52,890 bases of DNA from an uncultured Thermococci archaeon (GTDB taxonomy: Archaea; Methanobacteriota_B; Thermococci; Thermococcales; CAYNOZ01), in contig CAYNOZ010000001.1 in the NCBI GenBank assembly GCA_964398955.1, forward strand, positions 1 to 52,890, in the 5' to 3' direction. Each line of letters starts with the position of its first letter. The first letter of the stretch is position 1. This document shows, one piece after another, positions 19,362 to 41,789 of this stretch. The notes beneath the pieces are model-generated. The model was given only the letters and a program-made list of their open reading frames with translations. It was not told where the DNA came from and did not search any database. Both the position numbers and the translations under genes were made by a program.

Positions 19362-19390
19362 ATCGTTCCAACAGAAAGGAAAATCCCCAC

Positions 19391-22740: not shown

Positions 22741-22870
22741 ACACTTAACTTAAGTTAATAAGAGTATCTAAACCCTTGAAAATAATTAAGAAAAGTTATT
22801 GAAACTTTAATTTAAGTCAAATACATGTTAAAAACTTAAAGTTAAACCAGAATGGTTTGAATGGTGGAAG

Positions 22871-22890
22871 CCTCTTTCGAGTCAGAGAGG
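22871..22890 (-). other. stop-proximal hairpin after fdhD
   Basis: The 5-bp stem CCTCT/AGAGG lies 8 nt downstream of the fdhD stop (minus sense). The loop on the minus strand reads CTGACTCGAA. Confidence 0.35.
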
Positions 22891-22897
22891 ATTCAAC

Positions 22898-23671
22898 TTA
22901 GTATTGGATCCTTTCTTCGTTGCTGTAGATGTTCATTTTCTTTCCTCTTACAAATCCTATGAGTGTAATATTCAGTATAGATGCTATTTTAATTGCTAGG
23001 TCTGTTGGGGCCGACATAGAAACTATGATAGGTATTTTGATTTTAGCGGTTTTAATTAGAATACTGGAGGAGATTCGTCCACTAATAACTAATATTTTGT
23101 TTTTTGGAGATATTTGATCTAGTATCATTTTTCCGATTATTTTATCTATGACATTATGTCTTCCTATATCTTCTCTAAATATGAGTTTATTTTGTTTTTT
23201 ATCTGCTAATAAAGCGTTATGTACTGCTCCTGTTTTTTTAAAAAGTTTTGAATTATCTTGTAGTTCAACTATCATTTCACGGATTTTATTATTCAAAATT
23301 TTAATATCACTCTCTATTTCACAAAGGTCTGTCTCAGCTAGATTCAATTCTTTTGTGTCCCTTTTACAAGCATCTGAAATTTTTTCTTCATCCAAATTGA
23401 TAGAATTAAGCTTATCAGGGCTTATTATTACTTTTATTGTATTTTTACATCTTTCTATTGTTTCAATATTCCTTACATTTTTAAAACCTTTTTCAGAATA
23501 CAAATATCCTGTTGCTAGTTCTTTTAGATGATTTGGAGTACAACTTAAGTTGGTTAATTTTTTTTCGTTGACTTTAATCGCTATACGTTGTTCTTTAACG
23601 ATTTGATCTTTTTTAATTTGAGATTCCTTTCCTTTTATTTGAACTAATTCAATTTCTTGAGTTAGGTCCAT
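22898..23671 (-). CDS. fdhD: formate dehydrogenase accessory sulfurtransferase FdhD
   Basis: 257 aa with 'LSCTPNHLKELATGYLYSEKG' and 'GRHNVIDKIIGK'. It abuts the mobA stop. Confidence 0.8.
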   Translation of the reverse strand: MDLTQEIELVQIKGKESQIKKDQIVKEQRIAIKVNEKKLTNLSCTPNHLKELATGYLYSEKGFKNVRNIETIERCKNTIKVIISPDKLNSINLDEEKISDACKRDTKELNLAETDLCEIESDIKILNNKIREMIVELQDNSKLFKKTGAVHNALLADKKQNKLIFREDIGRHNVIDKIIGKMILDQISPKNKILVISGRISSSILIKTAKIKIPIIVSMSAPTDLAIKIASILNITLIGFVRGKKMNIYSNEERIQY

Positions 23672-24259
23672 TTATTTCCCTCTAATCATTTTCTCTGCTT
23701 TTTTAAGATCCTCAGTGTAATTAATATTACAGAAAAGTCGGTCTGGATCATTAATCTCTCTGATGTCTTCTTCATTAATCACACTCAAGTTGGCTTGTTT
23801 GAAGAAACTCTTAAACTTTAAATTGTTATTCTTTATCTCTTTTAATATTAAATTATGACAATTTTTGCTGTAAATTCCAGCTAAAGGTTCTATAAAATTA
23901 TTATGCTTTGGTACTAGTATATCATATGACTTCTCAAATTTTTTTAGAAATTCAAGATATTCAACTGTAATTAAAGGCATATCACAAGCCATTAAAAAGT
24001 TATAATTTGAATCAGAATAATATAAGCCTGTATAAAGTCCTCCTAAAGGTCCTTTATTAATAATTATATCTTCAACTACTTGAATATTTCTTAAAAATGA
24101 ATACTTAGATTGACGATCTACAACTACATAAACTTTATCAGAGACTTGATCTAATGTATTAATTATCCTTTTTATTATAATCTGATTTCCTAAATTAGCA
24201 AGAGCCTTATTGCTTCCGAATCTAGTGCTCTGACCTCCGGCCAATAGTATGGAATTCAT
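23672..24259 (-). CDS. mobA: molybdenum cofactor guanylyltransferase MobA
   Basis: 195 aa starting 'ILLAGGQSTRFGSNKAL', with 4-nt overlap to fdhA. Confidence 0.8.
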   Translation of the reverse strand: MNSILLAGGQSTRFGSNKALANLGNQIIIKRIINTLDQVSDKVYVVVDRQSKYSFLRNIQVVEDIIINKGPLGGLYTGLYYSDSNYNFLMACDMPLITVEYLEFLKKFEKSYDILVPKHNNFIEPLAGIYSKNCHNLILKEIKNNNLKFKSFFKQANLSVINEEDIREINDPDRLFCNINYTEDLKKAEKMIRGK

Positions 24260-26946
24260 TCTAGACTCTCCATTTTCACAGTTGTTACTTTTAATTCAGG
24301 AATTTTAGCTTCAGGATCAAATTCTTTTGTTGTTAATCTGTTTACAGGACTTTCCTTGAAGTGAAATGGCATAAAAAGATTTCCTGGTTCAACTTTTTTA
24401 CTAATTCTAGCCTTAGATTGGATTTGACCCCTACGAGACGTTATTTTAACTTTTTCTCCTTCCTTGATGCCAAGCTTTTTAGCATCTTTTTCATTAATTT
24501 CAATATAAGAATCAGACTCGTATTCATCAATAGGTTCAGAACGTCTTGTCATAGTCCCAGTCTGGAAATGATATAGCATCCTCCCAGTCATTAAAACGTA
24601 ATTAAACTCTTCATTTAGTTCATCAACCGGATCTAAGTAATTAGAAATGTGAAATTTTCCTTTACCTTTGAAGAATTCATTTTCATGCAAGAATTTCGTT
24701 CCTGTATCCTCTTCATTGACACAAGGCCATTGTACTCCAGAATTTTCTATTTTATTATAACTAACACCTCTATATATAGGCGTAAGCTCGGTTATTTCAT
24801 TCATTACTTCCTTTGGAGAATCATAGCGCATAGGGAATCCTAATCTCTTAGAAAGCTCGCATATGATTTTCCAGTCAGGTTTCGATTCTCCCAAAGGATT
24901 TATAGCTTTCCTAATCTTTTGAATCCGTCTTTCAGTATTAGTATAAGTGCCTTGTTTCTCTGCAAAACTAGATGCCGGCAAAACTACATCTGCGTATTCA
25001 GCAGTTTCTGTTAAAAATATATCTTGAACAACTAAGAAATTTAATTCCCTTAAAGCCTTCTTAACATGGTTCTGATCTGGATCAGAAACAACAGGATTCT
25101 CTCCAATTATATAAAGAGATTTTAGATCATTTTCAGCAGCTTTTTTAAAGATCTCCACTACGGTTAATCCTTCTTTACTAGGTAACTCTGTATTCCAGGC
25201 TCCCTCAAATTTTCCTTTAATTTTGGAATCGATTACGGACTGATATCCAGGAAAAACCTCTGGTAGGGCTCCCAAATCACACGCCCCCTGAACATTGTTT
25301 TGTCCTCTTAATGGATTAACTCCTGTGCCTTCCTTACCCACATTTCCAGTCGCCATAGCCAGATTGGCTAAAGATATAACGTTATCAGTTCCATTTTTGT
25401 GCTGAGTTATACCCATACCATAGTATATAGAGCTTTTACCCATAGAAGCGTATAATCTAGCTGCTTTAGTTATATCTTCAGCAGGGACTCCAGTTATTTC
25501 CTCAACTTTATGTATATCATACTTTTTTATTGAACTAAGTATCCCTTCGAAATTCTCAGTTCTTTCTTCTATGTATTTAGTATCTTGAAGATTATCTTGT
25601 ACTATTACGTGTAGTAAACCATTCAATAAGGCCGTATCTGTTCCCGGCTTTTGTTGTAAGTGTATATCAGCTTTTTGAGAGAGTTCAATCTTTCTTGGAT
25701 CTGCCACGATTAATTTTGCCCCATTTTTCACTGCTTTTTTTATCTTACTACCTATTATAGGATGATTTTCCGTAGTATTAGATCCGATCACAAATATTAC
25801 ATCAGTGCTGCTAATTTCTTCTATTGAATTAGTCATAGCCGCAGATCCAAATGATTTCTTCAATCCAGCCACGGTAGAGGAATGACATAATCTAGCACAG
25901 TGATCAATATTATTAGTTCCTATAACGGCTCTCATGAATTTTTGCATTAAATAATTCTCTTCGTTAGTACATTTAGCAGAACTTAAACCAGCTATAGAAT
26001 CCGGTCCAGATTCTTTCTTGATACTTTTCAATTCTTCAACCACATAATTTAATGCTGCATCCCAGGATACTTCTTGAAATTCTCCATTCCTATTTATCAA
26101 AGGTTGAGTAATTCTATCAGAGTGATTTACAAAATCATATCCGAATCTACCTTTCACACAAATTCCTTTATTTGAATTAGGGGAATTCTCATTTGATCTG
26201 GATTCTACTTTAATTATCTCATTTTTTTTAACTTGAAGTTCTAATTGACAACCTACTCCACAATAAGGGCATGTAGTTTGGATTTTATCAATTTTATATT
26301 CTTTATCTTGACTAGTAGATGAATTGTATGATAATGTTTCATTTGAACAATCCTCAGCAAAGCTATCGCACGAAACGTAATTAGAATGATCTCCTCCTAA
26401 TTTTTGATCTATGACCGATGCTACTCTAGTTTCAAAAATTCCGTCAAGAAAATATATTGGTTCGAAATTTTTAAATTCTTGATAATTTCTTAAAAATTCT
26501 TTATATAACATATAATTATTATTTTTGAGTTTTAGTAATTTAATGTAATCTAAAATCTCTTTTTCTGTTTCTAAACTGAAATAAGGTTTCTTGATCCTAT
26601 ATCTATAACTTAGATCTTGGATTACGCAATTTTCACTGGATTTGCATATAATATTAGAATTATTCTTAGTAGGGGAAGGTTCCATAGCTGTTTTATCTAT
26701 CTTTTCATTAGTTTTCTTTTCTGTAAATGCTTTTATTCCTTTTTCAATTGATTTGGAGCATATATTAAACATTGATCTATTTCTTGATTCTATCAAGCAT
26801 AGTTTACAGGACCCCAAGATAGCTAATTGAGGATCATAACTTAACTTGGAAATATTTATTTCATCACTTTGTCTGACGTCTAATTCATTCTGATCTTTCT
26901 CTGCCCTGTAAAATTTATAATTCATCTTATCTTTCATTAGAAACAC
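24256..26946 (-). CDS. fdhA: formate dehydrogenase catalytic (alpha) subunit, Mo/W-bisPGD, Cys-type, with atypical N-terminal extension
   Basis: 896 aa with the proximal 4Fe-4S motif 'TTCPYCGVGC...GICVKGR', the active-site 'IDHCARLCHSS' (Cys-His, no in-frame TGA) and 'LRGQNNVQGACD'. The track start is GTG (26946); in-frame ATGs at codons 4 and 8 are alternatives. Confidence 0.85.
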   Translation of the reverse strand: MFLMKDKMNYKFYRAEKDQNELDVRQSDEINISKLSYDPQLAILGSCKLCLIESRNRSMFNICSKSIEKGIKAFTEKKTNEKIDKTAMEPSPTKNNSNIICKSSENCVIQDLSYRYRIKKPYFSLETEKEILDYIKLLKLKNNNYMLYKEFLRNYQEFKNFEPIYFLDGIFETRVASVIDQKLGGDHSNYVSCDSFAEDCSNETLSYNSSTSQDKEYKIDKIQTTCPYCGVGCQLELQVKKNEIIKVESRSNENSPNSNKGICVKGRFGYDFVNHSDRITQPLINRNGEFQEVSWDAALNYVVEELKSIKKESGPDSIAGLSSAKCTNEENYLMQKFMRAVIGTNNIDHCARLCHSSTVAGLKKSFGSAAMTNSIEEISSTDVIFVIGSNTTENHPIIGSKIKKAVKNGAKLIVADPRKIELSQKADIHLQQKPGTDTALLNGLLHVIVQDNLQDTKYIEERTENFEGILSSIKKYDIHKVEEITGVPAEDITKAARLYASMGKSSIYYGMGITQHKNGTDNVISLANLAMATGNVGKEGTGVNPLRGQNNVQGACDLGALPEVFPGYQSVIDSKIKGKFEGAWNTELPSKEGLTVVEIFKKAAENDLKSLYIIGENPVVSDPDQNHVKKALRELNFLVVQDIFLTETAEYADVVLPASSFAEKQGTYTNTERRIQKIRKAINPLGESKPDWKIICELSKRLGFPMRYDSPKEVMNEITELTPIYRGVSYNKIENSGVQWPCVNEEDTGTKFLHENEFFKGKGKFHISNYLDPVDELNEEFNYVLMTGRMLYHFQTGTMTRRSEPIDEYESDSYIEINEKDAKKLGIKEGEKVKITSRRGQIQSKARISKKVEPGNLFMPFHFKESPVNRLTTKEFDPEAKIPELKVTTVKMESLE

Positions 26947-26980
26947 TTTGAAATTGAAATAAGAAGAAATGTTTTAATTT

Positions 26981-28156
26981 TTAAGTCACTATTTTCCTTA
27001 AATTATTCTCTTGTGATGCTAATTTTATTTCTAGCATTGAAAGATCCAGTGGGTCTTCTATTTTCCAATTGGAGGGCATTGGGTTGTCTTGCTGAGAATA
27101 TTTCATGTTTATGTATCTTAAATATGGAGATGTTGGCCCCATAGCTGGGTCTCCTGGTACTCTGAAACTTAAGTCGAATACGACGAATTCTGGCCTTTTC
27201 TCTTTATCTATCGGTATAGCGCCTTGGATGCCAATTGGACCTATCATCCCAGGAGGTACCTTATTTTCAATGGTTTTTATCAATTTTTCAGCATTTTCAT
27301 ACATAATTTCAATTTTTGATTCTCTTAATGTTTTTCCAGTGTGGCATATTTCTTCATTAGTTCTTTCGAAGTTCTTTTTTGATAATTCTAGTTGTAAATC
27401 TGCCGGTAATTTTCTATAACCGGTTTCATTTGTTTGTTCTCTGTCACTGAATCCTAGTAATTCTATATTGTTATCGAAGTTTTTTAAGGTGTATGTATGG
27501 AAGTTAGAGTTTATCATTGGTCCTATTATAAATTCTTCTATGGTTGCTTTTTTCAATCCTTCTTCACTTATTTCTTCGTTTTCAATTTTCTTTTTAGATT
27601 TTTCATAGTATTCTTGAGGGGTACTTGGGTAGAAGTACGCTCTTTCTAGTGGGTTGTCTTTTTGTTGTACTTTTACGACGGAAAGCCTGTCTATTTCGTC
27701 TGGATCATCAAATATTTTAGGAGATCTTACTCCGGCCTGTTCTAAAAGATAATATTGGTTTCTAGGTGGGGATGCATTTCTTTCTTCAGCTCTGAGCAGG
27801 TTTCTAGAACCATACAAGGGTATTTTGAATTGTTCTTCTATTTGATCTAATCCAGTGTAGACGACGAAGGATCTGTTAGGAATGAAAATAGTATTTTCCT
27901 TTTTTAGCATTTCTTGATTTTTTGTGGATAGTATATCCTTCCATTCTTCTAATAGTACTATCTTATCATATAATTGGTTGTTGTATTTTTGGTAAGTTTT
28001 TTCTCTACCTTTTTTCGCGAATAGTATTGTGGAGAATCCAGCTCTCTTTGCTGAGTATCCGATCGGTAAAGCTGAATGAGATCCAAAGATTCCGATACTC
28101 AAATTTTCAGAGTTATAATTTGAAGTTAAATTCTGTATTTCTGATCTCTTAATCAT
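26981..28156 (-). CDS. PurP-family ATP-grasp protein, second paralogue (function unproven)
   Basis: 391 aa, collinear with the adjacent purP ('GIFGSHSALPIGYSAKRAGFST' vs 'GVLCSHSALQIIHGAKLEGFKT'; 'IPNRSFVVYTG' vs 'IPHGSLVEYVG'; 'PPGMIGPIGIQ') but clearly more divergent. Confidence 0.7.
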   Translation of the reverse strand: MIKRSEIQNLTSNYNSENLSIGIFGSHSALPIGYSAKRAGFSTILFAKKGREKTYQKYNNQLYDKIVLLEEWKDILSTKNQEMLKKENTIFIPNRSFVVYTGLDQIEEQFKIPLYGSRNLLRAEERNASPPRNQYYLLEQAGVRSPKIFDDPDEIDRLSVVKVQQKDNPLERAYFYPSTPQEYYEKSKKKIENEEISEEGLKKATIEEFIIGPMINSNFHTYTLKNFDNNIELLGFSDREQTNETGYRKLPADLQLELSKKNFERTNEEICHTGKTLRESKIEIMYENAEKLIKTIENKVPPGMIGPIGIQGAIPIDKEKRPEFVVFDLSFRVPGDPAMGPTSPYLRYINMKYSQQDNPMPSNWKIEDPLDLSMLEIKLASQENNLRKIVT

Positions 28157-28167
28157 TTAATCACCTT

Positions 28168-29265
28168 TTAGTAAATAACTTTACTAAGCTCATTTTTCTC
28201 GAATCCTTGTTTTATTTCCCGAGCTATTCTACGCCCAGTTGACATAGGTTCTTCGAATAAGTACGAAGAATAAGGAGATCCTTTTGGATACAAGTTAGTT
28301 CCCGCTACTATTCTTCCAGAAATTTCAAAGACTGTGAATCCTCTTTTAGGATGATATACAGTTTCAAGACAGAACGGACCGAAAATTCCTGGGTTAAATA
28401 GTTTTTTAGAACTTTTTATTACATTTTCTCCCATTTCAACTAAATCAACTAGTAATTTTTCTCTAATTACTAGTGGTTCATTTCCTGTTACAGTATAATC
28501 AAAGAATTCTGTTGGTATATCTGGCAATCCTCTGTAGCTCTCATCTATTGGTTCAATTCTTCTATCCATCCCTAGAATTTCTATCGCTCCTTTATTGAGT
28601 TCTGCTCCTCTTTGATCATATAGAGAGTAAAAGTAGTGCGGATAATATCTTATACCAGGTATAAATTCCTGTATAGTAACATTTTTTATATCTTTTTCTG
28701 TTACAGTTCCTTTCTCTAACCTTTGCTTTAATTTCTGTTCGTAATCTTTTTCGGATTCTGCGATAAAGAACCCTTCTCCTCCTTTCGCTCCATCAAATTT
28801 TACGAATACAGTATTATCAATATTGGAAGGACTCTCATATTTTTTAGGTGTTTTTATTCCTGCTTTCTCTAACCATTCCATTTGTTTGTCTCTGCTTCCT
28901 TCCCATTTTAATGAGTCTCTATTACCATATATTGGAACATAAAAGTTTTCAAGTAGATTATTTGGTCCTACATATTCAACAAGTGACCCATGTGGTATGA
29001 TAATAGTGTTTTCTTCTATTAATTTTTCCTGATAATTTTCTTTGATTATATCGGAGAATTTATCAAGTACTATGAATTCATCTGGTTTTGCTCTAGAGAA
29101 GGCACTGTAAGCCCTTTTCCTTTCCTTAGTACAGATTCCAATAGTTTTGAAGCCTTCTAATTTGGCGCCATGAATTATTTGAAGGGCTGAATGAGAGCAT
29201 AGGACACCGATAGTTATATCATCGTAATCTTCTAAGATTTTATGAATTTCTTCTTTTTTTATCAT
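28168..29265 (-). CDS. purP: 5-formaminoimidazole-4-carboxamide ribonucleotide (FAICAR) synthetase, formate/ATP-dependent
   Basis: 365 aa, closely collinear with what I recall of M. jannaschii PurP ('HSALQIIHGAKLEGFKT', 'PHGSLVEYVG', 'GNRDSLKWEGSR', 'VKFDGAKGGEGFFIA', 'GRRIAREIK'). Confidence 0.85.
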   Translation of the reverse strand: MIKKEEIHKILEDYDDITIGVLCSHSALQIIHGAKLEGFKTIGICTKERKRAYSAFSRAKPDEFIVLDKFSDIIKENYQEKLIEENTIIIPHGSLVEYVGPNNLLENFYVPIYGNRDSLKWEGSRDKQMEWLEKAGIKTPKKYESPSNIDNTVFVKFDGAKGGEGFFIAESEKDYEQKLKQRLEKGTVTEKDIKNVTIQEFIPGIRYYPHYFYSLYDQRGAELNKGAIEILGMDRRIEPIDESYRGLPDIPTEFFDYTVTGNEPLVIREKLLVDLVEMGENVIKSSKKLFNPGIFGPFCLETVYHPKRGFTVFEISGRIVAGTNLYPKGSPYSSYLFEEPMSTGRRIAREIKQGFEKNELSKVIY

Positions 29266-29277
29266 CTCATTCTACCT

Positions 29278-29751
29278 CTAAAGTGAAGAAACTTCCTTAT
29301 CAGATTCTTCTAATTTTTTTCGCTCTTCTTCAAAATAATTCTTCAAATTTTGTTTTAGTTCTTCATCTTTCATAGAAAGTATCTCAATGGCATGAAGTGC
29401 AGCATTCTTCGGTTCTAAAATTGTTGAACATGGTACGTTAGACGGCATCCTCAAAGAAGAATAGATGTCTTCTTTATAACTTGAAATTACTGGACAATTT
29501 ATAACCGGAAAATGAGAGTTACCAGAGATCATAGGACCTATAGCATTAGATCTACCCGCTACAACTATGAAAATTAAATCATCATATTCCTTTTCATACT
29601 TCTCTAATGATTCAAGAACTTTTTCTGACATCTTATGACCAGAAAGAGCTCTAACCTCGTATTCCACATTAAAATTGTTGAATAATTCCCTAATTCCGCT
29701 AATATGATCTTTATCTTTCTTTGAACCCATCCAAATGATAACTTTACCCAC
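29278..29751 (-). CDS. purE: class II PurE (AIR carboxylase type)
   Basis: 157 aa with 'VVAGRSNAIGPMISGNSHFPVINCP', which matches the class II 'AGRSNGLGP...SGN..YPVI.CP' signature rather than the class I 'AGGAAHLPG'. Confidence 0.8.
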   Translation of the reverse strand: MGKVIIWMGSKKDKDHISGIRELFNNFNVEYEVRALSGHKMSEKVLESLEKYEKEYDDLIFIVVAGRSNAIGPMISGNSHFPVINCPVISSYKEDIYSSLRMPSNVPCSTILEPKNAALHAIEILSMKDEELKQNLKNYFEEERKKLEESDKEVSSL

Positions 29752-29755
29752 TATA

Positions 29756-30781: not shown

Positions 30782-30785
30782 TAGA

Positions 30786-32689: not shown

Positions 32690-35661
32690 TAGAAATCACC
32701 GAAAGTTTTCTTATAAGATTTTTTTAATTCTTTTATATTTTCTTCTATTATTTGATCGCCTTTAATTCCTTTTACTGTTAAAATTTTTGAAGAACGTATA
32801 CTTCCTATCTTTGAATGAGGTATATCTTTCATTAATTTCTCAAAAGAACGTTTTTTCTCAGGTTTGATTGTTACAATGAATCTGGAAGGTGTTTCGGAGA
32901 ATAGTATCTTATCATCTCTTTCTAAAGTAGTTGGAACCTTTGAAAGATCTACTTTAAGACCTTTATCTCCTGCCATAGCTTTTTTAGCTAAAGAAATACC
33001 TAACCCACCTCTGTAACATCCAGTGCAACTCTCTAACAGTTCTTTTTCAGTAGCTTCTGATATTGCTTTGTATATGTCATAAGATTCTTCGGGATCCACT
33101 TTTGGAACATTTAATCCTATCTCATCCTTCATTTCATAATATTCAGAGGCTCCAAGTTCATCCTTAGTTTCTCCAATAACGTAAATCAAATCTCCACTAG
33201 AATTCGGAGTTAAACTAATAGATTTTGAAACATCTTTAACTTTTCCAAGTGCCGCAAACTGAAGAGCTGGAAGACCTGAAACCTTCTCAGTTTCTCCATC
33301 AGAGTTTTTTAGTTCTCCTCCTATGAACATTGAGTCTTTTCCAGAGATACAAGGGGTTTCAAATTTCTTAGTAAATTTGTAAAGGGCCTTATTCGCTCTT
33401 ACTAACTTTCCTAGATTTTCTTTTCCCTCTGGATTGTCTTCACTCTGAATGGAGTTAGGCCAGCAGAAATTATCATTTAAGGCAATATAGTCAATTGAAG
33501 CTCCTACAGATAAAATTCTTCTTATTGATTCATCTAGAGAAGATGCTGCCATCCAATATGGATCTATTTGAGAATACTTGAAGTTATTACCAAGTGACAA
33601 TGCTAAACCAGATTTATATTTTTTTAAAGGTTTTATAACGGATGCATCAGATTTTACATCATTTTTAATTCCTACATATGGTTTTATAACTGAAGTTCCT
33701 TGTACTTCATGGTCATATTGTCTTTGAATCCATTCCTTTGAGGCTATATTTTTTCTCGAAAGCATTTCTTTAAGAAAATTATTATAATTTTCTGGAGATT
33801 TTATTTCTGGTTCTTTTCCGTATTCAGGATTCCATTCAGCTTTTAATTCAAATCTTGGAAATTTTTTATGTAAGAATTCCATATCTAAGTAAGCAACTGT
33901 TTCTCCGCGGTATAGGACGTGGAATTTTCCAGTATTTTTATATTTTCCAATTGAGGTAATTTCAACATCATGTTTCTTCGCCAATTTTTCTAATTCTTTG
34001 ATTTTCCCTGGATCTACGCCTAGAATCATTCTTTCTTGTGATTCCGATATTATTATTTCCCAAGGGTCTAATCCTTTATACTTTAGAGGTACTTTATCAA
34101 GATGTAATTCACATCCGTTGCTGAATTCTGCAGTCTCTCCAACTGCTGATGATAGTCCTCCCCCTCCAATATCCCAAGTCAGCTTATATAATCCTAAATC
34201 TCTTGCTTCTATCATAAAATCATGGACTTTCTTCTGGGTGAATGGATCTCCTATTTGTACGTGACTAGCAGTTATATGCTCTCCAAATTCTAATGAAGAT
34301 TCTGTAACCCCATGAATACCATCTTTACCTACTCTTCCTCCTATCATTACTATTAGATCATCTTCTTCGACGTCTTTCTCCCAACTTTGTTCTTCATTTA
34401 TCTCTTTGGGCATTAAACCTACAGATCCAACGTATACCAAAGGTTTACCTAAGAAACTATTGTCATATTTAGAATAACCATAGATTGTTGGAACTCCAGA
34501 TTTGTTCCCTCCATCTCGTACACCTTCCACTACTCCTTCTAGCAATCTTCTTGGAGGTATTTCTGGATTTAAATTTCCATCATAAAATGGGTCTGGAGTA
34601 CAGAATCCATATGAACCTGCTATTAACTTTGATCCTTTTCCAGCTCCTAATATGTCCCTATACACTCCTACTATGCCTGTTTCAGCTCCACCATAAGGTT
34701 CTTTAGCAGATGGAGAGTTATGTGTCTCAAATTTCATCGAAACAGCCCAGTCATCATTAAACTCTATAACTCCTGCATTATCCCAAAAAACAGATAATAT
34801 CCAATCTTTATCGATTTCTTCAGTACTTCCTTTAATATAAGTGTTGAACAAGGAATTAATTGTAACTTTTTCCTCAGTAACCTTATTAACATAATTGATT
34901 TCGCTGTTGAAAATCTTGTGTTTACAATGCTCTGACTGCGTTTGGGCTATTATTTCAAGCTCTACATCAGTTATTTTACCAGATAAACCATAATCAGCTC
35001 TTTCATTCATAAACAAACTTTGGTCAAAATGATCTTTTATAGTTCTTATCTCATTAATATTCAAATCAAAATTTCTTTTTTCACAAATCTTTTCAAGTTT
35101 TTTAACACTCATATCTGAAATATTAAACTTCTTTAGATTTGTATTTTCATTTAATTTAACCTTAGGAACTTTATTTTTAATATCATCTTTTTCAAATTCC
35201 TCTTTAGTTAAAATCTCAGTTTTGTTAATAAGATCGTTCGATAATAAATCATTAGCTATCTCTTCAACGTCCTCCCTGTCTAAATTTCCTTTTACATAAT
35301 AATTTTTAGCTGTATATACATCTCCATCAATATCAGCATCTAAAAGTTCATTAATAGCATCTTCAGATCTCTCAGCCACATTATCTTTAACTCCGGGTAA
35401 GAACCCTACAAAAATAAGCCAATCAAAATCATCAAAAATAGGTGAAGAATAAGATCCCTTCTGAGTTACAGGATCAACAAAAATCTGATCCTTAATCTCA
35501 TTTAAATCCTTAGAATCTAAATCCATGTCAAATAAGTAAACATCGCTAATATTAATTGAGTTGATCTCAGTAAAATATTTATTGACTTTCTCTTCAAGAC
35601 TAGTAGCTCTTGCATCTTCAAATTCCTTCTTAAATACCACTTCTAATTCATGAACCATCAC
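32689..35661 (-). CDS. purL: FGAM synthase subunit PurL fused to two N-terminal PurS-like modules
   Basis: 990 aa. The PurL core begins with 'SEHCKHK' at residues 243-249, followed by 'FETHNSPS'. Residues ~1-70 and ~81-152 look like PurS repeats (the second ends 'DLLSNDLINKTEI', compare PurS 'LLANPVIE'). The track start is GTG (35661); the ATG at 35658 is likelier. Confidence 0.85.
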   Translation of the reverse strand: MMVHELEVVFKKEFEDARATSLEEKVNKYFTEINSINISDVYLFDMDLDSKDLNEIKDQIFVDPVTQKGSYSSPIFDDFDWLIFVGFLPGVKDNVAERSEDAINELLDADIDGDVYTAKNYYVKGNLDREDVEEIANDLLSNDLINKTEILTKEEFEKDDIKNKVPKVKLNENTNLKKFNISDMSVKKLEKICEKRNFDLNINEIRTIKDHFDQSLFMNERADYGLSGKITDVELEIIAQTQSEHCKHKIFNSEINYVNKVTEEKVTINSLFNTYIKGSTEEIDKDWILSVFWDNAGVIEFNDDWAVSMKFETHNSPSAKEPYGGAETGIVGVYRDILGAGKGSKLIAGSYGFCTPDPFYDGNLNPEIPPRRLLEGVVEGVRDGGNKSGVPTIYGYSKYDNSFLGKPLVYVGSVGLMPKEINEEQSWEKDVEEDDLIVMIGGRVGKDGIHGVTESSLEFGEHITASHVQIGDPFTQKKVHDFMIEARDLGLYKLTWDIGGGGLSSAVGETAEFSNGCELHLDKVPLKYKGLDPWEIIISESQERMILGVDPGKIKELEKLAKKHDVEITSIGKYKNTGKFHVLYRGETVAYLDMEFLHKKFPRFELKAEWNPEYGKEPEIKSPENYNNFLKEMLSRKNIASKEWIQRQYDHEVQGTSVIKPYVGIKNDVKSDASVIKPLKKYKSGLALSLGNNFKYSQIDPYWMAASSLDESIRRILSVGASIDYIALNDNFCWPNSIQSEDNPEGKENLGKLVRANKALYKFTKKFETPCISGKDSMFIGGELKNSDGETEKVSGLPALQFAALGKVKDVSKSISLTPNSSGDLIYVIGETKDELGASEYYEMKDEIGLNVPKVDPEESYDIYKAISEATEKELLESCTGCYRGGLGISLAKKAMAGDKGLKVDLSKVPTTLERDDKILFSETPSRFIVTIKPEKKRSFEKLMKDIPHSKIGSIRSSKILTVKGIKGDQIIEENIKELKKSYKKTFGDF

Positions 35662-36544
35662 AAATCAACTCCTCTGAAACATCTTTAATTTCAATAATAG
35701 CTCCATGACTTTTTATTGATGCTTTCGCCATTTTATTACCTAAATTCATACATTCAACTATATTTTCACCCTTTAGTAATCCTAAAATAAATCCTGAAAT
35801 GAAAGAATCACCTGCACCAGTTGTATCCACAGCAGAAGAACTTTCAATTGATATAAATTCACTAAATTTTTTATTCCTAATAAATGAACCATTTTTACCT
35901 CTGGTGACTATAACATTATCAGATCCTAAATCAACTAAATCTTCAGAAGCCTTCTCAAAACTTTTTCCAGTCAATAGCTCTGCCTCATCTTCATTCAAAA
36001 ATAGAAAATTAGCCCTTTCAATAAAATTTCTTAACTCAGATAATTCTCTCTTAGCGTATAAATGACCTGGAGAAAATATCAAACCAATCTGATCAGGTAT
36101 TTCATCAATCAATTGTCTTTGAATATGGAACTGTTTTTCATCGGCAAATGAACTTATTAGCACATATTTAGAATCAAAAAGATACTCTTTTGAAATATCT
36201 TTTAGTTTTAATTCATTATTGGCTCCAGAATCTATAAAAATCGTTCTTTCACCATTCCGATCTATAAAACAAATGGTTTTACCCGTTTCACTATCTTTAA
36301 CTTCTACTCCTTCCCTATCTATCCATTCAAAAGAATCTTCAAGAATTTTTGATTCATTACCGATAGCTCCAACATATCCTACATTATAACCAATTTTACC
36401 TAAATTAACACAGGTATTCAGGCCTGATCCACCTTGAAACTCGCCTATTTTTTTACATGTGGATTCTGTTCCTGATTCAGGAAATTTAGAAATTCTAAAA
36501 ATATGATCTATGTTAATAGCGCCGAAACCTGTTAGATCCTTCAA
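35648..36544 (-). CDS. PfkB/ribokinase-family sugar or nucleoside kinase
   Basis: 298 aa with 'GGSGLNT' and the C-terminal 'DTTGAGDSF' PfkB signatures. It is embedded in the pur operon, with 4-nt and 11-14-nt overlaps to its neighbours. Confidence 0.8.
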   Translation of the reverse strand: MKDLTGFGAINIDHIFRISKFPESGTESTCKKIGEFQGGSGLNTCVNLGKIGYNVGYVGAIGNESKILEDSFEWIDREGVEVKDSETGKTICFIDRNGERTIFIDSGANNELKLKDISKEYLFDSKYVLISSFADEKQFHIQRQLIDEIPDQIGLIFSPGHLYAKRELSELRNFIERANFLFLNEDEAELLTGKSFEKASEDLVDLGSDNVIVTRGKNGSFIRNKKFSEFISIESSSAVDTTGAGDSFISGFILGLLKGENIVECMNLGNKMAKASIKSHGAIIEIKDVSEELICDGS

Positions 36545-37497
36545 CCTAAGTCACCTGCCTTGCCTCTCAAATTTCTTCTGGTTTTTTCACTGAAAAATAC
36601 TATATTTTCAGGTTTTTTAATCCATTTAAAGTATGGAATTCTTTTTTCAATGTCATTACTATATTTCTGTTTTAGGTAGTTAATTCCATATTTGTCAAAT
36701 TCTTTTAAGATTTTCAGAATATCAGAGGATTTATTTGAAACTATAGCGAAATTTGCCGATTCAATAGCATATTTATTACCATTAAAGGAAATTGACAGTC
36801 CCATTTTCTCTTTGGTTTTTCTCAGCATTACAGAATCTGTGATACTATCCCCAATAACTTTAATCTCTGAGAGATCTTTATTTTCTTTAGAGATTATATC
36901 TAAAAGAGCTTCATATTTCCTTGATCCTCCGATAGGATCTACTTCATCTATTACTTTTCCGAAATTCGTTTTCGGTAAAATTTCCCAGAAAAATTTATCC
37001 AATTCACTTTTAATTTCTTCATTTACTTCCTTATAATTAACTATTTTTTTGCTCCAGTCTTTAACTATTTTTACATCTTTTTCTGGAATAGAATATTTTT
37101 CAATATCTAATTTAGTTGAGTATATGTATCTTTCATCCAGTTCTAAGTCTTCTGATATTTTCTTCAAAAGATGTTCGTAACTGGTGCTTATTATGTAAAC
37201 ATTCTCTTCTTCACGTAGATTTGAAATAGTTTCTTTTGCGCCTCTAAGATATTTAGCCCTATTTGATAGATCTTTTAAATCATCATTGGTTACTCCATGA
37301 GTTATTAAAAATGGTAATATTAGTTTTAATGTATTTCCAGCTTCATATCCATCCCTTTGTTCATCTAAAAACAATTTATCATCGTATTCTGATATTATTT
37401 CAAATATTTTACCGCCTTTAGGTACATATTCACTCATAGATAAGAATGCATGATCTATATCTACTAAAGGTCCTTCTAAATCAAAGATAGTTGTCAC
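36541..37497 (-). CDS. HAD-superfamily-like protein with D-x-E first motif (EhaR-like?), function unknown
   Basis: 318 aa. Motif I is 'FDLEGPL' (Asp6, with Glu8 in place of the second Asp). Motif II is 'VYIISTS', there is a Lys in 'GGSRKYE', and motif IV is 'IGDSITD'. It has 4-nt overlaps with purD and the PfkB gene. Confidence 0.6.
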   Translation of the reverse strand: MTTIFDLEGPLVDIDHAFLSMSEYVPKGGKIFEIISEYDDKLFLDEQRDGYEAGNTLKLILPFLITHGVTNDDLKDLSNRAKYLRGAKETISNLREEENVYIISTSYEHLLKKISEDLELDERYIYSTKLDIEKYSIPEKDVKIVKDWSKKIVNYKEVNEEIKSELDKFFWEILPKTNFGKVIDEVDPIGGSRKYEALLDIISKENKDLSEIKVIGDSITDSVMLRKTKEKMGLSISFNGNKYAIESANFAIVSNKSSDILKILKEFDKYGINYLKQKYSNDIEKRIPYFKWIKKPENIVFFSEKTRRNLRGKAGDLG

Positions 37498-38873
37498 TTA
37501 GTAAGCCTCCTAAGATTGTCAATACTTTTATTTATATGCTCTTCAGAAGCTATATCTTCCCTATACCTAAGTTCAGATCCTTTAATTTCACTAATGGCTT
37601 TTTGAGAAATTTTTCTAGCTTTTTCTATAGTATCTGCTATTCCTACAGCACAAACTGTTCTAGATGAGATAGAATAGGTCTCCTCGTCCTTCAATTCCAA
37701 ATCTGCAGGATATATCCTTAGTTGATTTCCATACTGTTCTTTCATTTTTAATGCATCGGTTAAGTCAACTTCCTTATCGCCCTTGTACTTTTCATCTCTA
37801 CCATAATCCCATGGAACCTTATATGTAACTACAGAAGCTTTATCCATAAAATCAAGAGCCTTCAAATTAGATTCTAAAATATCCAAGCAAATCTCAACGA
37901 AATCATTTTCTAGTAAGGGCATAATATTAATCATTTCAGGATCTCCAGGCCTGCTATTAATCTCCAATACTTTAAGACCATTAGAACCAATTATAAACCC
38001 TATATAGATAGATAAACCCTTTAAACCTGAATTAAAATCCCCATTCTTTAGCTTATTATGTAATTTCTTTCCTACTTCTAAGCTTTTCTCCCAGTCTTCC
38101 TCACTCATAAAAGGCAATATATTATTTTTAGATTTATAAGACCCCATTCCTCCAGTATTAGGTCCTTCATCGCCTTCAAACGCTCTTTTATAATCTCTAA
38201 CACTTGGAGTTTCTACTAAATGATCACCATCTGAGAAAAATTGAACACTAAATTCCTCACCATCTATTTTCCTCTCAATTATTACCATTCCATCTTCCAA
38301 ATTTGGATAAAAATAATTCTCAAATAATTCGTCCCTAGAATCGAAGTGATCACCCCATACTCCAACTCCTTTACCAGCGGCAGGAGTATCAGGTTTGACA
38401 GCTACCTCATCACCGATTTCATCTAAGTACTCAAATAGATCTTTTTTAGCTTCCATCTTAGAAGAATAATCATCAGGGTCAAAAACCTTAAACTCTGGAT
38501 TCATTTCAGGAAAAATTTCCTCTAACAATTCTCTTTGTCTAACCTTACTAGCTTCAATAGCAAACTCCGATGTAGGACATACCATCTGAATACCGGTATT
38601 CTTCTCTATTTTATCTCTCACACCATCAATGATGGGGCCTTCCGGACCTACCAAACCAAATCTTATATTATTTTCATGTTTTTTAGCGAATTCAACAATT
38701 TTATCAACATCTAAATCTGGTATAACCCTATGTTCTGTAGATTTTTCTAAATTAAATGGATTATTTTGCTTATCCACTACATAAAGATCTACATCATGCT
38801 TGCTTTTATCAAGAGCATCCACGATTGATGCTCCTCTTGCTCCATATGATATTACCAAAATTCCAATCTTCAT
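37494..38873 (-). CDS. purD: GAR synthetase
   Basis: 459 aa, ATP-grasp, with 'GPNTGGMGSY' and 'EINSRPGDPE'. Confidence 0.85.
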   Translation of the reverse strand: MKIGILVISYGARGASIVDALDKSKHDVDLYVVDKQNNPFNLEKSTEHRVIPDLDVDKIVEFAKKHENNIRFGLVGPEGPIIDGVRDKIEKNTGIQMVCPTSEFAIEASKVRQRELLEEIFPEMNPEFKVFDPDDYSSKMEAKKDLFEYLDEIGDEVAVKPDTPAAGKGVGVWGDHFDSRDELFENYFYPNLEDGMVIIERKIDGEEFSVQFFSDGDHLVETPSVRDYKRAFEGDEGPNTGGMGSYKSKNNILPFMSEEDWEKSLEVGKKLHNKLKNGDFNSGLKGLSIYIGFIIGSNGLKVLEINSRPGDPEMINIMPLLENDFVEICLDILESNLKALDFMDKASVVTYKVPWDYGRDEKYKGDKEVDLTDALKMKEQYGNQLRIYPADLELKDEETYSISSRTVCAVGIADTIEKARKISQKAISEIKGSELRYREDIASEEHINKSIDNLRRLTK

Positions 38874-40333
38874 AGATCCACCTCATCCTCTACTTCAAAA
38901 GGATAATTATCATTCAAACATCCTAAACAGAGATCATCAATTCCTATAGCTTTCTTTAAATTATCTATAGAATTATAGTATAAAGAATCAGATCCAAGTA
39001 CTTCATTCGCTTCTTTACTTATTTTTTTTACAGAAATTTTCCCTTTAACATACTCTTCATAGGATGGTAATTGACTAACGAATAATTCTTCTCTAGTAGG
39101 AATATCTAATCCAAAGAAACATGGCGAAACTAATGGAGGGCAAGAAATTCTTATATGAACCTCTTCAACTCCTAAATCTCTTACTTTCTTAATCATACTT
39201 CGTATACTGGTTCCACGAACTAATGAATCATCAAATAAAACTATTTTTTCCCCACTCATGAGATCATCTATGAAAGAAAGCTTTCTCTTAACAACGCTTT
39301 CTCTATCACTCTGATTACATTGTATAAAACTTCTTTCCGGAATAAATCGATCTCTCATAATTCCTTCAACATAAGGTAAGTTAGATTCTAGTGCAAATCC
39401 TTCTGCAGCGTATCTACCGCTATCCAGTATTGGTACTACCATTCCATCATTCACTTCATGATCCTTAGCAAGTTCTCTCCCAAGATCCATCCTTATCTTC
39501 CCAATATCCCGTCCATCTAGATGAGAATCAGGCCTTGAAAGATAAACATGTTCAAACATACAATGTTGATGTTCTTCAACAGGTATTCTAAATCTTTCAA
39601 TTCCACTAGAATTGATTCTTATTAGTTCTCCAGGTTTTACCTCCTCAAAAGTTTTATTTTTAAATATTTTATCGAAAGTAGAGGATTCAGAACTTAAAGC
39701 ATATGATTCACCAGAATTAGAAATACACAGAGGACGTATACCTAATGGGTCCCTGAATCCTATTAATTCTCCTTGTTCGGTTATTCCGAGAACTGCATAT
39801 CCTCCTTCTAGTTCATTAAATATTCTTTCAAAATTATTATCTTCTAAAGATTCTAGAAGTAAATACCCAATTATTTCAGCGTTAGTACCTATCTCGTCAT
39901 ATTGATTGAAATACTTTTCTTTTAAATACTCGAAATTACTTAGAGTTCCATTAAAAGCTATTGAAATTTTTTTACCATCTTTTTCAACTTCAATAGGTTG
40001 AGCATGTTTCCATTCATTCACTTCTTCAGTTGAATACCTGTTATGGCCAATTCCGGCTCCTGCACTTAACTTATCAACTATTATCCTCCCGTGATCCTCC
40101 CCTCTACTCTCTTTTTCTTGAACAAAATCTCTAGTTTCTGGAGCAAAAACATCTTTTACATACCCTATATCTTTATAGGTATTCATAGATCCATTATGAA
40201 TTGTCATTCCAGTAGATTCATGTCCTCTATGCTGTAAACTAAGTAAAGCTCTATAAATGAATAGAGGAATACTGGATTTATCTTCTTCTGAATTAGTGAA
40301 TATACCGAAAACTCCGCAGTGATCATTTACCAT
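38870..40333 (-). CDS. purF: amidophosphoribosyltransferase
   Basis: 487 aa with the Ntn catalytic Cys in 'MVNDH/CGVFGI' after a 5-aa propeptide, and the PRT motif 'IVLFDDSLVRGTS'. Confidence 0.9.
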   Translation of the reverse strand: MVNDHCGVFGIFTNSEEDKSSIPLFIYRALLSLQHRGHESTGMTIHNGSMNTYKDIGYVKDVFAPETRDFVQEKESRGEDHGRIIVDKLSAGAGIGHNRYSTEEVNEWKHAQPIEVEKDGKKISIAFNGTLSNFEYLKEKYFNQYDEIGTNAEIIGYLLLESLEDNNFERIFNELEGGYAVLGITEQGELIGFRDPLGIRPLCISNSGESYALSSESSTFDKIFKNKTFEEVKPGELIRINSSGIERFRIPVEEHQHCMFEHVYLSRPDSHLDGRDIGKIRMDLGRELAKDHEVNDGMVVPILDSGRYAAEGFALESNLPYVEGIMRDRFIPERSFIQCNQSDRESVVKRKLSFIDDLMSGEKIVLFDDSLVRGTSIRSMIKKVRDLGVEEVHIRISCPPLVSPCFFGLDIPTREELFVSQLPSYEEYVKGKISVKKISKEANEVLGSDSLYYNSIDNLKKAIGIDDLCLGCLNDNYPFEVEDEVDL

Positions 40334-40335
40334 AA

Positions 40336-41733
40336 TTAAACCTCTAAATGCTTTTTAACTGAATCTTGAGATTCCCATTTAGAATATTGATTACTTTTCA
40401 TAATTATACTATGAGCTGCTTTTTCAGAATTTTTCTTAGCTTCTAAAACATTTTCTCCACTACTTATAGCGATACCCATTCTTTCTTCTACTATCCTATG
40501 CGGATGTGGATCATGATAAGCGAAAGGCTTTCCAAAATGGTATATCTCCGCGTATTTCTCAGCTTTCTTAATTCCTTTATATTCAAGTCCATAACCCCTT
40601 ACATTTCTAGGAGATTTAAAAACATGAGTAGAAGCTGGTTTTATGCACTCTATCAACTTATAACCATTTTCTTCTTTATTAGGAATATTTCTTCCTGTAA
40701 TAGCTTTTAAATGAAGCCCTCCTTCACTAAAACCAGGCTCATGACTTCTATAGGTGACCATGCCAGTATCATGAGGTCTTGGAGAACATTCATTCCCATA
40801 GACCGTTACTTCTCCATTTTCTTCTTTAACAAACATTTCAACGCCGAAAATCCCCAATCCACCTAATTCATCAGTTATTTTCTTAGCAACATCATAAATC
40901 TTTTTTTCAGCTACTTTAGCAAGTCTTTTATCCTTTCTTTCATCCTCAGGAGACCAAGGCAAGTATTCTTCCACTTTGGGGCCTTGCCAAGAAGAGTGAT
41001 AATCAGAATCGATTTGATAATGTCCAACTGGTTTAGGAAAACTTGTCTTAATGTCCCCAGAACTATCCAAATGTCTAACCGCTAATTCTGTCACTTCAGT
41101 ATCAAAATCTATAAACTCTTCAATTATTGCCTCATCCCCTCTACCTCTTGCATCTTCTATAGCAAACTTTCTAGCTTTTTCTATATCGCTTTCATCTTCT
41201 ATTAAATATGAACCCTTACCAGAAGACGACATTATAGCCTTACTAATACACGGAAATCCTATATCCATTACAGTTTCTCTAAATTCCTCAGGAACTTCAG
41301 TAGTAGTGAATCTATAATCACTCGTTGGAACATCTGCATCCTCTGCTATAGTTTTTCTAATAAGTTTTCTATTCATGCAAATTTTAGTCGCATTAGCATT
41401 AGGAATTACATTCCATCCTTCCTCTTCAAGTTCTATCAGCATATCAGTATCAATGGCCTCAATTTCAGGGATTATTACATCAGGCTTTTCTTTTTCCACC
41501 ACTTGTCTCATTGCATTACCATCAATCATATCAAAAACATATTCTTTATCAGCAACTTTACTAGCGGGAGCCCCTTGATATCTGTCAACTGATATAAGTT
41601 CATAAGATCCAAATCTTCTAGCTTCTCTAAAAACTTCCTGACCGAGTTCCCCTGCACCAAACATGACGATTTTGTAGGATTCACCCTGTGATTCTCCTGC
41701 TACATCCATCATCTCAAACAATATTAACCCCAT
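40336..41733 (-). CDS. purT: formate-dependent GAR transformylase (ATP-grasp)
   Basis: 465 aa with 'FGAGELGQEV' and 'ECSPRPHDTGMVT' (compare E. coli PurT 'GSGELGKEV' and 'SPRPHDTG'). It is the first gene of the unit and has no SD upstream. Confidence 0.8.
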   Translation of the reverse strand: MGLILFEMMDVAGESQGESYKIVMFGAGELGQEVFREARRFGSYELISVDRYQGAPASKVADKEYVFDMIDGNAMRQVVEKEKPDVIIPEIEAIDTDMLIELEEEGWNVIPNANATKICMNRKLIRKTIAEDADVPTSDYRFTTTEVPEEFRETVMDIGFPCISKAIMSSSGKGSYLIEDESDIEKARKFAIEDARGRGDEAIIEEFIDFDTEVTELAVRHLDSSGDIKTSFPKPVGHYQIDSDYHSSWQGPKVEEYLPWSPEDERKDKRLAKVAEKKIYDVAKKITDELGGLGIFGVEMFVKEENGEVTVYGNECSPRPHDTGMVTYRSHEPGFSEGGLHLKAITGRNIPNKEENGYKLIECIKPASTHVFKSPRNVRGYGLEYKGIKKAEKYAEIYHFGKPFAYHDPHPHRIVEERMGIAISSGENVLEAKKNSEKAAHSIIMKSNQYSKWESQDSVKKHLEV

Positions 41734-41789
41734 TATGTTAAAAAATAGTTGTTTTTTAAATGTTTTTTAGCAAAAATATGTTAAAAAAT
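41734..41789 (-). promoter_or_regulatory. putative pur-operon promoter: TATA-like element flanked by two identical 13-nt direct repeats
   Basis: The minus strand reads CATTTAAAAAA (41762-41752), centred ~24 nt upstream of the purT ATG, with no SD, so a leaderless or very short-leader transcript is plausible. TATGTTAAAAAAT occurs at 41734-41746 and again at 41777-41789. Confidence 0.4.

Follow-up and report, generated by a model that had tools for sequence, protein, structure and literature searches.

The purine biosynthesis cluster on contig CAYNOZ010000001.1, from an uncultured archaeon, ends in three genes that appear to have been taken over from bacteria: fdhA, which encodes a formate dehydrogenase (FDH), and its companions mobA and fdhD. 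The contig is public, complete and 52,890 bp long, with a G+C content of about 33%, and it was analysed at its full length (hereafter, the window). Judged by sequence, FdhA has kept the catalytic core of a molybdenum- or tungsten-dependent FDH, and its N-terminal iron–sulfur (Fe–S) domain has decayed. The cluster that precedes it on the same strand encodes PurT and PurP, predicted formate-dependent ligases of purine synthesis, and we see an even chance that the bacterial core, now domesticated, produces or buffers the formate that these enzymes use.

The cluster comprises 15 consecutive open reading frames (ORFs), all on the minus strand, that run from position 41733 down to 22898 in the order purT-purF-purD-HAD-pfkB-purSL-purQ-purM-purC-purE-purP1-purP2-fdhA-mobA-fdhD (HAD, haloacid dehalogenase superfamily); purine genes account for 10 of the 15. 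An initial annotation, made from the letters of the window, had described these ORFs, given values for their 14 junctions and assigned the genes to families. The ORF table returned the same 15 ORFs, the junction values were reproduced exactly from the annotation's own coordinates, and the families were upheld by the Pfam and NCBIfam profile matches on which gene identities are based throughout. From purT to purP2, the recomputed junctions are +2, −4, −4, −4, −14, −1, −4, +4, +4, +12 and +11 nucleotides (gaps positive, overlaps negative). Those of purP2/fdhA, fdhA/mobA and mobA/fdhD are +34, −4 and 0 nucleotides if fdhA begins at GTG 26946. Public gene calls on contigs of the same species place the fdhA start at ATG 26937; the purP2/fdhA gap is then 43 nucleotides, the largest in the cluster.

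The three distal genes have bacterial relatives and bacterial gene orders. A search of 5.8 billion proteins returned one cluster of FdhA sequences at 98% identity and the next relatives at 55–57%; from there down the matches, where named, are bacterial (Halanaerobiales, Petrotoga, other Bacillota, Bipolaricaulota and Planctomycetes). FdhD, the FDH accessory sulfurtransferase (22898..23671, minus strand; TIGR00129, 201 bits against a cutoff of 141), has best matches at 42–47% identity whose names, where given, are bacterial only, and the two of these that we looked up directly adjoin close FdhA homologues, on contigs of the nearest FdhA matches. The molybdenum cofactor guanylyltransferase gene mobA (23672..24259, minus strand; NF001457, 138 bits) is probably also of bacterial origin: the nearest representative of its product, 50% identical, comes from a contig (L092) that looks bacterial and encodes a sigma-54 activator. 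There the order is fdhA-mobA-fdhD, the C-terminal end of fdhA is 62% identical, and mobA and fdhD meet at a zero-nucleotide junction, as they do in the window.

In the bacterial relatives, fdhA stands last or one place before the end in operons of the form nuoE-like/nuoF-like/fdhA(/fdhD) (L084–L086, L088 and L089), whereas ORF scans and a six-frame motif search of the window found no NuoE- or NuoF-like genes beside fdhA. Because the nearest relatives and the layouts of FdhA, FdhD and MobA are bacterial or bacteria-like, we read fdhA-mobA-fdhD as one bacterial cassette that was acquired jointly by horizontal transfer, without the NuoE/F-like genes. The transfer is not recent, since the codon usage of the cassette matches that of the purine genes (L1 distance 0.23, compared with 0.32 between purine and housekeeping genes) and is far from that of the bacterial homologues (0.44–0.55). 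On this evidence, the archaeal operon did not originally include the fdh module. One bacterial relative (L088) has a FocA/NirC-type formate channel gene (10266–11138) after its nuoE/nuoF/fdhA/fdhD operon; such a gene did not accompany the cassette into the archaeal contig.

FdhA falls into two parts with different histories. The catalytic part (24256..26298, minus strand) is an FDH of the Cys type with a molybdenum or tungsten bis-pyranopterin guanine dinucleotide (Mo/W-bisPGD) cofactor, and matches TIGR01591 with 903 bits against an equivalog cutoff of 666. It retains the motif for the proximal [4Fe–4S] cluster (CPYCGVGC...C260), the active-site motif CARLC351H352 and R544GQNNVQG, all invariant in our alignments, together with nine of nine conserved cysteines, and it is 58–65% identical to bacterial homologues. 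Codons 1–213 (26299..26937, minus strand) align with the NuoG-like Fe–S domain of those homologues and are vestigial. Here identity falls to 22–29%, whereas bacterial pairs of similar catalytic divergence still share about 46%.

The loss in the N-terminal domain extends to every cluster site. The [2Fe–2S] site keeps three of its four ligands (the cysteine at residue 33 has become serine), the His-Cys3 [4Fe–4S] site keeps two of four (histidine replaced by asparagine, and one cysteine deleted), and each of the two ferredoxin-type [4Fe–4S] sites keeps one of four. Altogether 7 of 14 conserved cysteines and the histidine are gone; 41 of 44 bacterial homologues retain all of them and the other three retain 12. 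Neither Fer2_4 nor NADH-G_4Fe-4S_3 nor Fer4 gave a Pfam match in the window FdhA, whereas the full set of N-terminal Fe–S domains occurs in all listed FdhA matches except one partial sequence (P0038). An AlphaFold2 model built from a 46-sequence alignment, which we used solely for its per-residue confidence, has predicted local distance difference test (pLDDT) values of 75–98 over most of the catalytic part, with short dips, and of 30–46 over residues 84–213. We also considered that fdhA might start near residue 215 and encode an FdhF-like protein, and rejected this: there is no methionine codon or Shine–Dalgarno site there, and the 213 codons upstream are free of stops. FdhA as a whole looks like a functional FdhF-like core with a cofactor-poor appendage.

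The initial annotation had noted that no fdhB-type partner accompanies fdhA, and this holds: the ferredoxin motif CxxCxxCxxxC is absent from all six reading frames of the window, so no FdhB-like Fe–S partner of that type is encoded there. Among the window ORFs that were scanned, there was likewise no Fhs, FolD, formate transporter or NuoE/F-like protein.

PurT and PurP families consume free formate plus ATP. The purT gene (40336..41733, minus strand) encodes an ATP-grasp, formate-dependent glycinamide ribonucleotide (GAR) transformylase of the archaeal type (NF006766, 395 bits against a cutoff of 339); its best Protein Data Bank match is the Pyrococcus horikoshii protein 2CZG (409 bits, compared with 261 bits for Escherichia coli PurT). 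An identity as purK was ruled out, as PurT models score about 400 bits and PurK models about 125. The purP1 gene (28168..29265, minus strand; domains DUF1246 and DUF1297) probably encodes a formate-dependent 5-formaminoimidazole-4-carboxamide ribonucleotide (FAICAR) synthetase: it matches 2R7K, the structure of the characterized Methanocaldococcus jannaschii PurP, a FAICAR synthetase, with 307 bits, and its NCBIfam score of 390 bits lies under the equivalog cutoffs of 556–603. By their sequences, then, an archaeal-type PurT and a PurP1 close to 2R7K support the claim that both one-carbon steps are assigned to formate- and ATP-dependent ligases. The accompanying claim that the window lacks PurN and PurH also stood, in that no gene of either type was found among the larger ORFs scanned with Pfam; the RNA-polymerase and elongation-factor block at 6052–18750 lay outside that scan.

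Downstream of purP1 lies purP2 (26981..28156, minus strand), a divergent paralogue with the same two domains that matches 2R7K with only 175 bits. For PurP cluster II, no function has been demonstrated in the literature (Brown et al. 2011, PMC3261824). Tandem purP paralogues are widespread, occurring in Hadarchaeota, Bathyarchaeia and others (L004–L034); the window and Hadarchaeota have the order purP1-purP2, Bathyarchaeia have the purP2-like copy ahead of the purP1-like one, and loci of Nitrososphaerota mostly have a single purP within the flanks examined.

In the explanation that we favour, horizontal transfer placed a bacterial cassette immediately after purP2, without NuoE/NuoF-like subunits; since then the electron-wire domain of FdhA has decayed while the catalytic domain, the proximal [4Fe–4S] site, mobA and fdhD have been preserved. 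FdhA would then serve as a low-flux, stand-alone CO2 reductase or FDH that sustains an intracellular pool of formate, to be used by PurT for C8 and by PurP for C2 of the purine ring. A soluble carrier of low potential, ferredoxin for instance, would probably deliver electrons directly to the remaining [4Fe–4S] cluster. As the purP2/fdhA gap shows no terminator signal, transcription from the pur promoter would most likely continue into the cassette, and a second, internal promoter may contribute. Of this account, the gene content and its arrangement, the bacterial origin, the lost cluster ligands and the confinement to one lineage are established by the analysis; the electron donor, the direction of catalysis, the tie to purines and co-transcription are inferred. 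In its most specific form, in which the alpha subunit of a bacterial NAD(P)-type FDH was domesticated as a purine-dedicated, ferredoxin-fed CO2 reductase co-expressed with PurT and PurP, the proposal is a tentative one that we place somewhat short of an even chance. If true, it would represent a second independent invention of the fdhA–pur linkage seen in Thermococcus, and a natural minimal FDH with a single Fe–S cluster in which a cofactor-less scaffold domain has been kept.

The initial annotation had taken the physical linkage of fdhA to purine genes to be uncharacterized, but both the linkage and the formate-supply idea have been published. In Thermococci, solo fdhA genes of 'Group 5' often lie near purine genes, among others in several species of Thermococcus, their redox partner is unknown and a supply of formate for purine synthesis has been suggested as their role (Holden & Sistu 2023, PMC10025317). 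In Thermococcus sibiricus, purFCMTEDPSQL and fdhA are adjacent on mixed strands (TSIB_0067 is fdhA, TSIB_0063 purT and TSIB_0049 purP; PMC10025317). The window shares with these loci an fdhA near purT and purP without other FDH structural genes, the same hypothesis of formate supply, and the lack of a transporter and of a known redox partner (in the window, none in the contig). The Thermococcus genes, however, are several genes apart and not all on one strand, whereas here 15 genes are co-oriented and fdhA follows purP2 by 43 nucleotides. The window FdhA is moreover of the bacterial NuoG-fused type with a decayed Fe–S domain and is accompanied by mobA and fdhD, a comparison that we made with Thermococcus by description only. 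The host, too, differs, in that the best matches of its PurP proteins suggest a relationship to MSBL1 and Hadarchaeota. The nearest relatives of FdhA, where named, are bacterial, which argues for an origin independent of Thermococcus Group 5. The formate-supply idea is thus a hypothesis that already existed, of which the window provides an independent and tighter instance.

Three further systems help to place the locus. The bacterial NuoE/NuoF-coupled, NAD(P)-type FDHs, such as that of Halanaerobium, are the closest relatives of FdhA and FdhD and share the fdhA-fdhD order and the order of domains in FdhA, with mobA between the two genes on L092. In contrast to them, the window lacks nuoE- and nuoF-like genes, three of the four N-terminal Fe–S sites of its FdhA are destroyed, and the module sits behind an archaeal pur operon; the intact N-terminal Fe–S sites and adjacent NuoE/NuoF-like genes that define the NuoEF-coupled (FdsABG-like) class are both missing. 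A functional parallel is E. coli FDH-H (FdhF, 1AA6), to which the window FdhA aligns with 610 bits over residues 217–891 and which is a single-[4Fe–4S], Mo-bisPGD subunit that docks to an external Fe–S protein. FdhF is a selenocysteine enzyme of the formate hydrogenlyase complex and lacks an N-terminal extension, whereas the window FdhA has cysteine and a 213-residue vestigial domain. Halobacterial pur clusters contain purU-like genes (Brown et al. 2011, PMC3261824), another case of a formate-producing gene clustered with pur genes; that gene, however, encodes a folate-dependent formyltetrahydrofolate hydrolase and occurs in hosts without PurP.

For an FDH that runs towards formate for purines in a folate-independent archaeon, the anabolic Fdh of Methanothermobacter marburgensis offers a precedent: a formate auxotroph of this organism is devoid of Fdh activity, as Tanner 1989 is cited in PMC10579436. 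The support there is genetic and physiological, and the enzyme differs from the present one in being an F420-dependent FdhAB that is unlinked to pur genes.

The linkage of purP2 to fdhA is confined to one species-level lineage. The same layout was found on four further contigs, making five with the window. They come from separate assemblies or runs: two are from NCBI assemblies, one is from a Logan run, and one, from another run, belongs to a strain with 98% identical FdhA; a further same-species contig (L003) stops at purP2 and is uninformative on fdhA. Exact-sequence look-ups of FdhA (with the GTG start) and PurP2 returned nothing on record, and that of PurP1 succeeded. The nearest relatives of PurP2, at 64–71% identity, are from MSBL1 single-cell genomes and Hadarchaeota metagenome-assembled genomes. 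The initial annotation had staked its reading on adjacency in relatives, which we did not find: none of 80 GTDB loci with PurP2 relatives has fdhA, mobA or fdhD within 10 kb, and neither do the closest relative, L090, or the MSBL1 locus L091. Hadarchaeota loci and L090 have a purL-purQ / purD-purF-purE-purC / purP1-purP2 cluster without fdh, and L091 has a pur cluster without fdh and with another gene set and order. The fdh–pur linkage in this lineage is a single lineage-specific event. The flanks showed no synteny with those of the Hadarchaeota relatives, which precluded a reconstruction of the insertion point.

Translation signals set fdhA apart from its neighbours. We calculated the energy of the duplex between the anti-Shine–Dalgarno sequence and the 20 nucleotides upstream of each start. 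It is −6.7 to −12.7 kcal/mol for purF through purP2, mobA and fdhD, and +2.7 kcal/mol for purT, the first gene; the three candidate starts of fdhA give +3.2, −1.9 and −1.1 kcal/mol. A Shine–Dalgarno site is therefore present at 13 of the 14 internal starts, and fdhA is the sole internal gene without one. Across the window, such sites occur in 22 of the 26 genes that have a same-strand upstream neighbour at a distance of 50 nucleotides or less. Two of the four exceptions are just under the threshold (−5.8 and −5.9 kcal/mol), and the clear ones are fdhA and one probably mis-started ORF. Owing to fdhA, the cluster departs from a strict operon definition, by which every internal start has a Shine–Dalgarno site or an overlap. 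The initial description of the cluster as one translationally coupled unit accordingly holds for two stretches, purF to purP2 and fdhA to fdhD, and fails across the 43 nucleotides that separate them.

That gap (26938..26984, minus strand) is identical in a second strain (L087) and contains neither a Shine–Dalgarno site nor a run of five or more T. A run of at least five T is the usual archaeal termination signal, and because the gap has none, read-through from purP2 into fdhA is likely. An internal promoter is possible, because fdhA lacks a Shine–Dalgarno site as a first gene does. An A/T-rich, TATA-like stretch, TTAAAAATTAAAAC (26971-26984, minus strand), overlaps the purP2 stop codon and lies 24–39 nucleotides upstream of the fdhA GTG; in a genome with 67% A+T it is weak evidence of a promoter. 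The formate module that the initial annotation saw as hard-wired to purine synthesis thus keeps a FdhA that is catalytically intact by its sequence, a common strand and a junction without a terminator, and loses translational coupling and adjacency in relatives.

The same junction bears on the main alternative, that the cassette is a passenger that landed where it did no damage, at the 3′ end of an operon, and is expressed from its own promoter in general formate metabolism with no specific tie to purines. It might, for example, oxidize formate for reducing power, or produce it as a sink for electrons during fermentation or syntrophy. We regard this as possible and rather unlikely. An fdhA without a Shine–Dalgarno site, like the first genes of the window, and with a TATA-like stretch at a suitable place is what it would lead one to expect, and it also accords with an adjacency limited to one species-level lineage, with donor operons that encode NAD(P)/NuoEF-type catabolic or redox-balancing FDHs (one of them with a FocA-type transporter alongside) and with a literature in which the FDHs of MSBL1 are treated as catabolic (PMC4725937). 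A catabolic FDH, however, needs a high-flux outlet for electrons, whereas the wire domain here is destroyed and the window holds neither a partner nor a transporter. Of all the enzymes in the window, two consume formate, and the cassette landed next to them; a like association arose independently in Thermococcus (PMC10025317), and no terminator signal separates purP2 from fdhA.

Several points tell against formate supply to purine synthesis, irrespective of how well the passenger alternative fares. The linkage is absent from the 80 loci and from the closest relatives, and purP2 could be a chance landing site. As the one internal gene without a Shine–Dalgarno site and with a TATA-like A/T stretch upstream, fdhA may form a transcription unit of its own. 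A complete route for electrons cannot be traced, given that three of the four N-terminal cluster sites are destroyed and the window encodes no partner. Elsewhere the genome could contain purN or purH, purU, pfl, further fdh genes or a gene for a formate transporter. The estimate of selection on fdhA given below comes from few substitutions. Finally, a Methanococcus maripaludis fdhA1 fdhA2 double mutant grows without added purines, as Wood 2003 is cited in PMC10025317.

Whether the cassette functions at all can be judged from the state of its genes. If it were a decaying relic, the loss of Fe–S ligands would be the first stage of pseudogenization after the loss of the partner subunits, a course of events with which the vanished cysteine and histidine ligands, the N-terminal identity below that of comparable bacterial pairs, the low model confidence over residues 84–213 and the missing Shine–Dalgarno site would all agree. 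Yet the 893-codon frame of fdhA is intact in an A/T-rich genome, and an open frame over the N-terminal part has a chance of about 6e-10 given the composition, the other two frames holding 19 and 34 stops. Every catalytic motif is retained, mobA and fdhD are intact and have Shine–Dalgarno sites, and the fully ameliorated codon usage points to long residence. The ratio of nonsynonymous to synonymous substitution rates (dN/dS) between two strains is 0.39, from 23 substitutions; split by domain it is 0.66 for the N-terminal part (4 substitutions) and 0.36 for the catalytic part, a comparison that is underpowered. The catalytic motifs, the nine conserved cysteines, the identity of the catalytic part to bacterial homologues, the codon usage and the open frame suggest that selection has retained fdhA, and we consider a relic highly improbable.

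We give very little credence to a repurposed FdhA, whose vestigial N-terminal domain would now be a docking module through which formate is channelled, for example towards PurP2 or PurT, or which would act on a substrate other than formate or CO2: the 213 N-terminal residues do stay open despite their lost cofactor sites and fdhA does adjoin PurP2, a paralogue of undemonstrated activity, but direct evidence is wanting, the active site has the Cys, His and Arg residues of true FDHs, the match to TIGR01591 exceeds the cutoff by a wide margin, and FdhD is specific to FDH maturation (PMC10609526).

The locus bears on the source of free formate for PurT and PurP in folate-independent archaea; by the accounts cited above, one methanogen requires an FDH and another can do without. 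That fdhA lies beside formate-consuming pur genes in a second case of independent evolution strengthens the idea that formate from FDH is an anabolic supply favoured by selection, here as a compact unit of three genes plus two ligases. Separately, the decayed electron-wire domain is a natural experiment on the minimal Fe–S needs of Mo/W FDHs, with a bearing on the engineering of enzymes for CO2 reduction. Drawing as it does on one lineage and on inference, the case carries moderate weight at present.

The other genes of the cluster, all on the minus strand, cover much of purine synthesis. They include purF (38870..40333), for amidophosphoribosyltransferase, with GATase_6/7 domains and a TIGR01134 score of 329 bits (cutoff 350), and purD (37494..38873), for GAR synthetase, with GARS_N/A/C domains and 264 bits to TIGR00877. 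The product of purL (32689..35661; 990 residues) matches TIGR01736 with 525 bits over residues 231–987. Its N terminus (residues 4–68) has weak matches to PurS (PF02700, 20 bits against a cutoff of 22.2; NF005019, 35 bits against 122), and a formylglycinamide ribonucleotide amidotransferase (FGAR-AT) linker precedes the PurL core. The gene looks like a PurS–PurL fusion; no separate purS ORF was found in the cluster, and tblastn matches in the Hadarchaeota relatives are confined to the PurL core. Next come purQ (31874..32689), for the glutaminase subunit of formylglycinamidine ribonucleotide synthase (GATase_5, 236 bits); purM (30786..31877), for aminoimidazole ribonucleotide synthetase (TIGR00878, 234 bits); purC (29756..30781), for succinylaminoimidazolecarboxamide ribonucleotide synthetase (NF010566, 431 bits); and a class I-like purE (29278..29751; PF00731, 129 bits; TIGR01162, 127 bits). 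The pathway is incomplete in the cluster, as purB, purK and the inosine monophosphate cyclohydrolase gene (purO or purH2) were not found anywhere on the contig.

Two genes of less certain role sit between purD and purL inside the cluster. One encodes a HAD-superfamily hydrolase that is weakly SerB-like (36541..37497, minus strand; Pfam Hydrolase_3; TIGR00338, E = 3.6e-10), the other a ribokinase-like sugar or nucleoside kinase of the pfkB family (35648..36544, minus strand; PF00294, 160 bits; TIGR02152, 146 bits, under its cutoff). In the MSBL1 single-cell genome SCGC-AAA261D19 (L091), a HAD homologue of 32% identity directly follows purD (16811–17920) and a pfkB homologue of 35% identity lies within the pur cluster (19804–20718), and because of these homologues the association of the two genes with pur must be older than the fdh insertion. 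Supply of ribose 5-phosphate or phosphoribosyl pyrophosphate, or of serine or glycine, are possible roles. In the same L091 cluster (18902–20718), ftr, for formylmethanofuran:tetrahydromethanopterin formyltransferase (PF01913), abuts pfkB; we discarded it as a general feature of the relatives' pur clusters, as it was found in L091 alone and in neither the other 92 loci nor the window.

At the upstream end of the cluster, a candidate TATA-like box, ACATTTAAAAAAC (41753..41766, minus strand), recognized by consensus only, lies about 20–30 nucleotides before the purT ATG and, together with the lack of a Shine–Dalgarno site, suggests that purT is a leaderless or short-leader first gene. At the downstream end, a CCTCT...AGAGG hairpin followed by a run of five T (22830..22890, minus strand) is a candidate end of the transcription unit. 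A 9-mer, AAAACATTT, found upstream of both purT and fdhA was rejected as a shared signal, because its 5 matches, against 2.85 expected and equalled in 16 of 100 shuffles, are not significant. Scans for bacterial-type promoters (76 sites, compared with 84 in the shuffled expectation) and terminators (4 compared with 8.4), both unsuited to archaea, gave no excess. The window as a whole shows a dichotomy, in which operon-internal genes carry strong GGTGA/GAGG Shine–Dalgarno sites and several first genes carry none. These first genes (purT, a gene for a 180-residue phosphoribosyltransferase (PRTase), a nitroreductase gene and rpoB) have TATA-like A/T boxes 20–35 nucleotides ahead of their start codons, a pattern suggestive of leaderless mRNAs.

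Purine-salvage-type genes occupy both flanks of the cluster. Upstream of purT, across a gap of 542 nucleotides and outside the tight cluster, is a PRTase gene of the PRK08558 family (42276..42974, minus strand; NF006328, 258 bits; PurR_Bsub, 66 bits), whose product bears an extra N-terminal region of about 75–95 residues and might act either as an adenine PRTase or, in the manner of PurR, as a regulator. On the other side lie the gene for the 180-residue, hypoxanthine/xanthine PRTase-like protein (22170–22712, plus strand) and one for an amidohydrolase of the nucleoside or base deaminase group (19961–21220, plus strand). Farther along, an archaeal block of the type rpoB-rpoA'-rpoA''/EF-2/EF-1alpha occupies 6052–18750, as judged by gene size and order only. 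Near the start of the window (90–3018, plus strand), an XPB-type helicase gene is followed by an ORF for a DUF790 protein; its listed start falls 53 nucleotides inside the helicase gene, and the ORF probably begins farther downstream.

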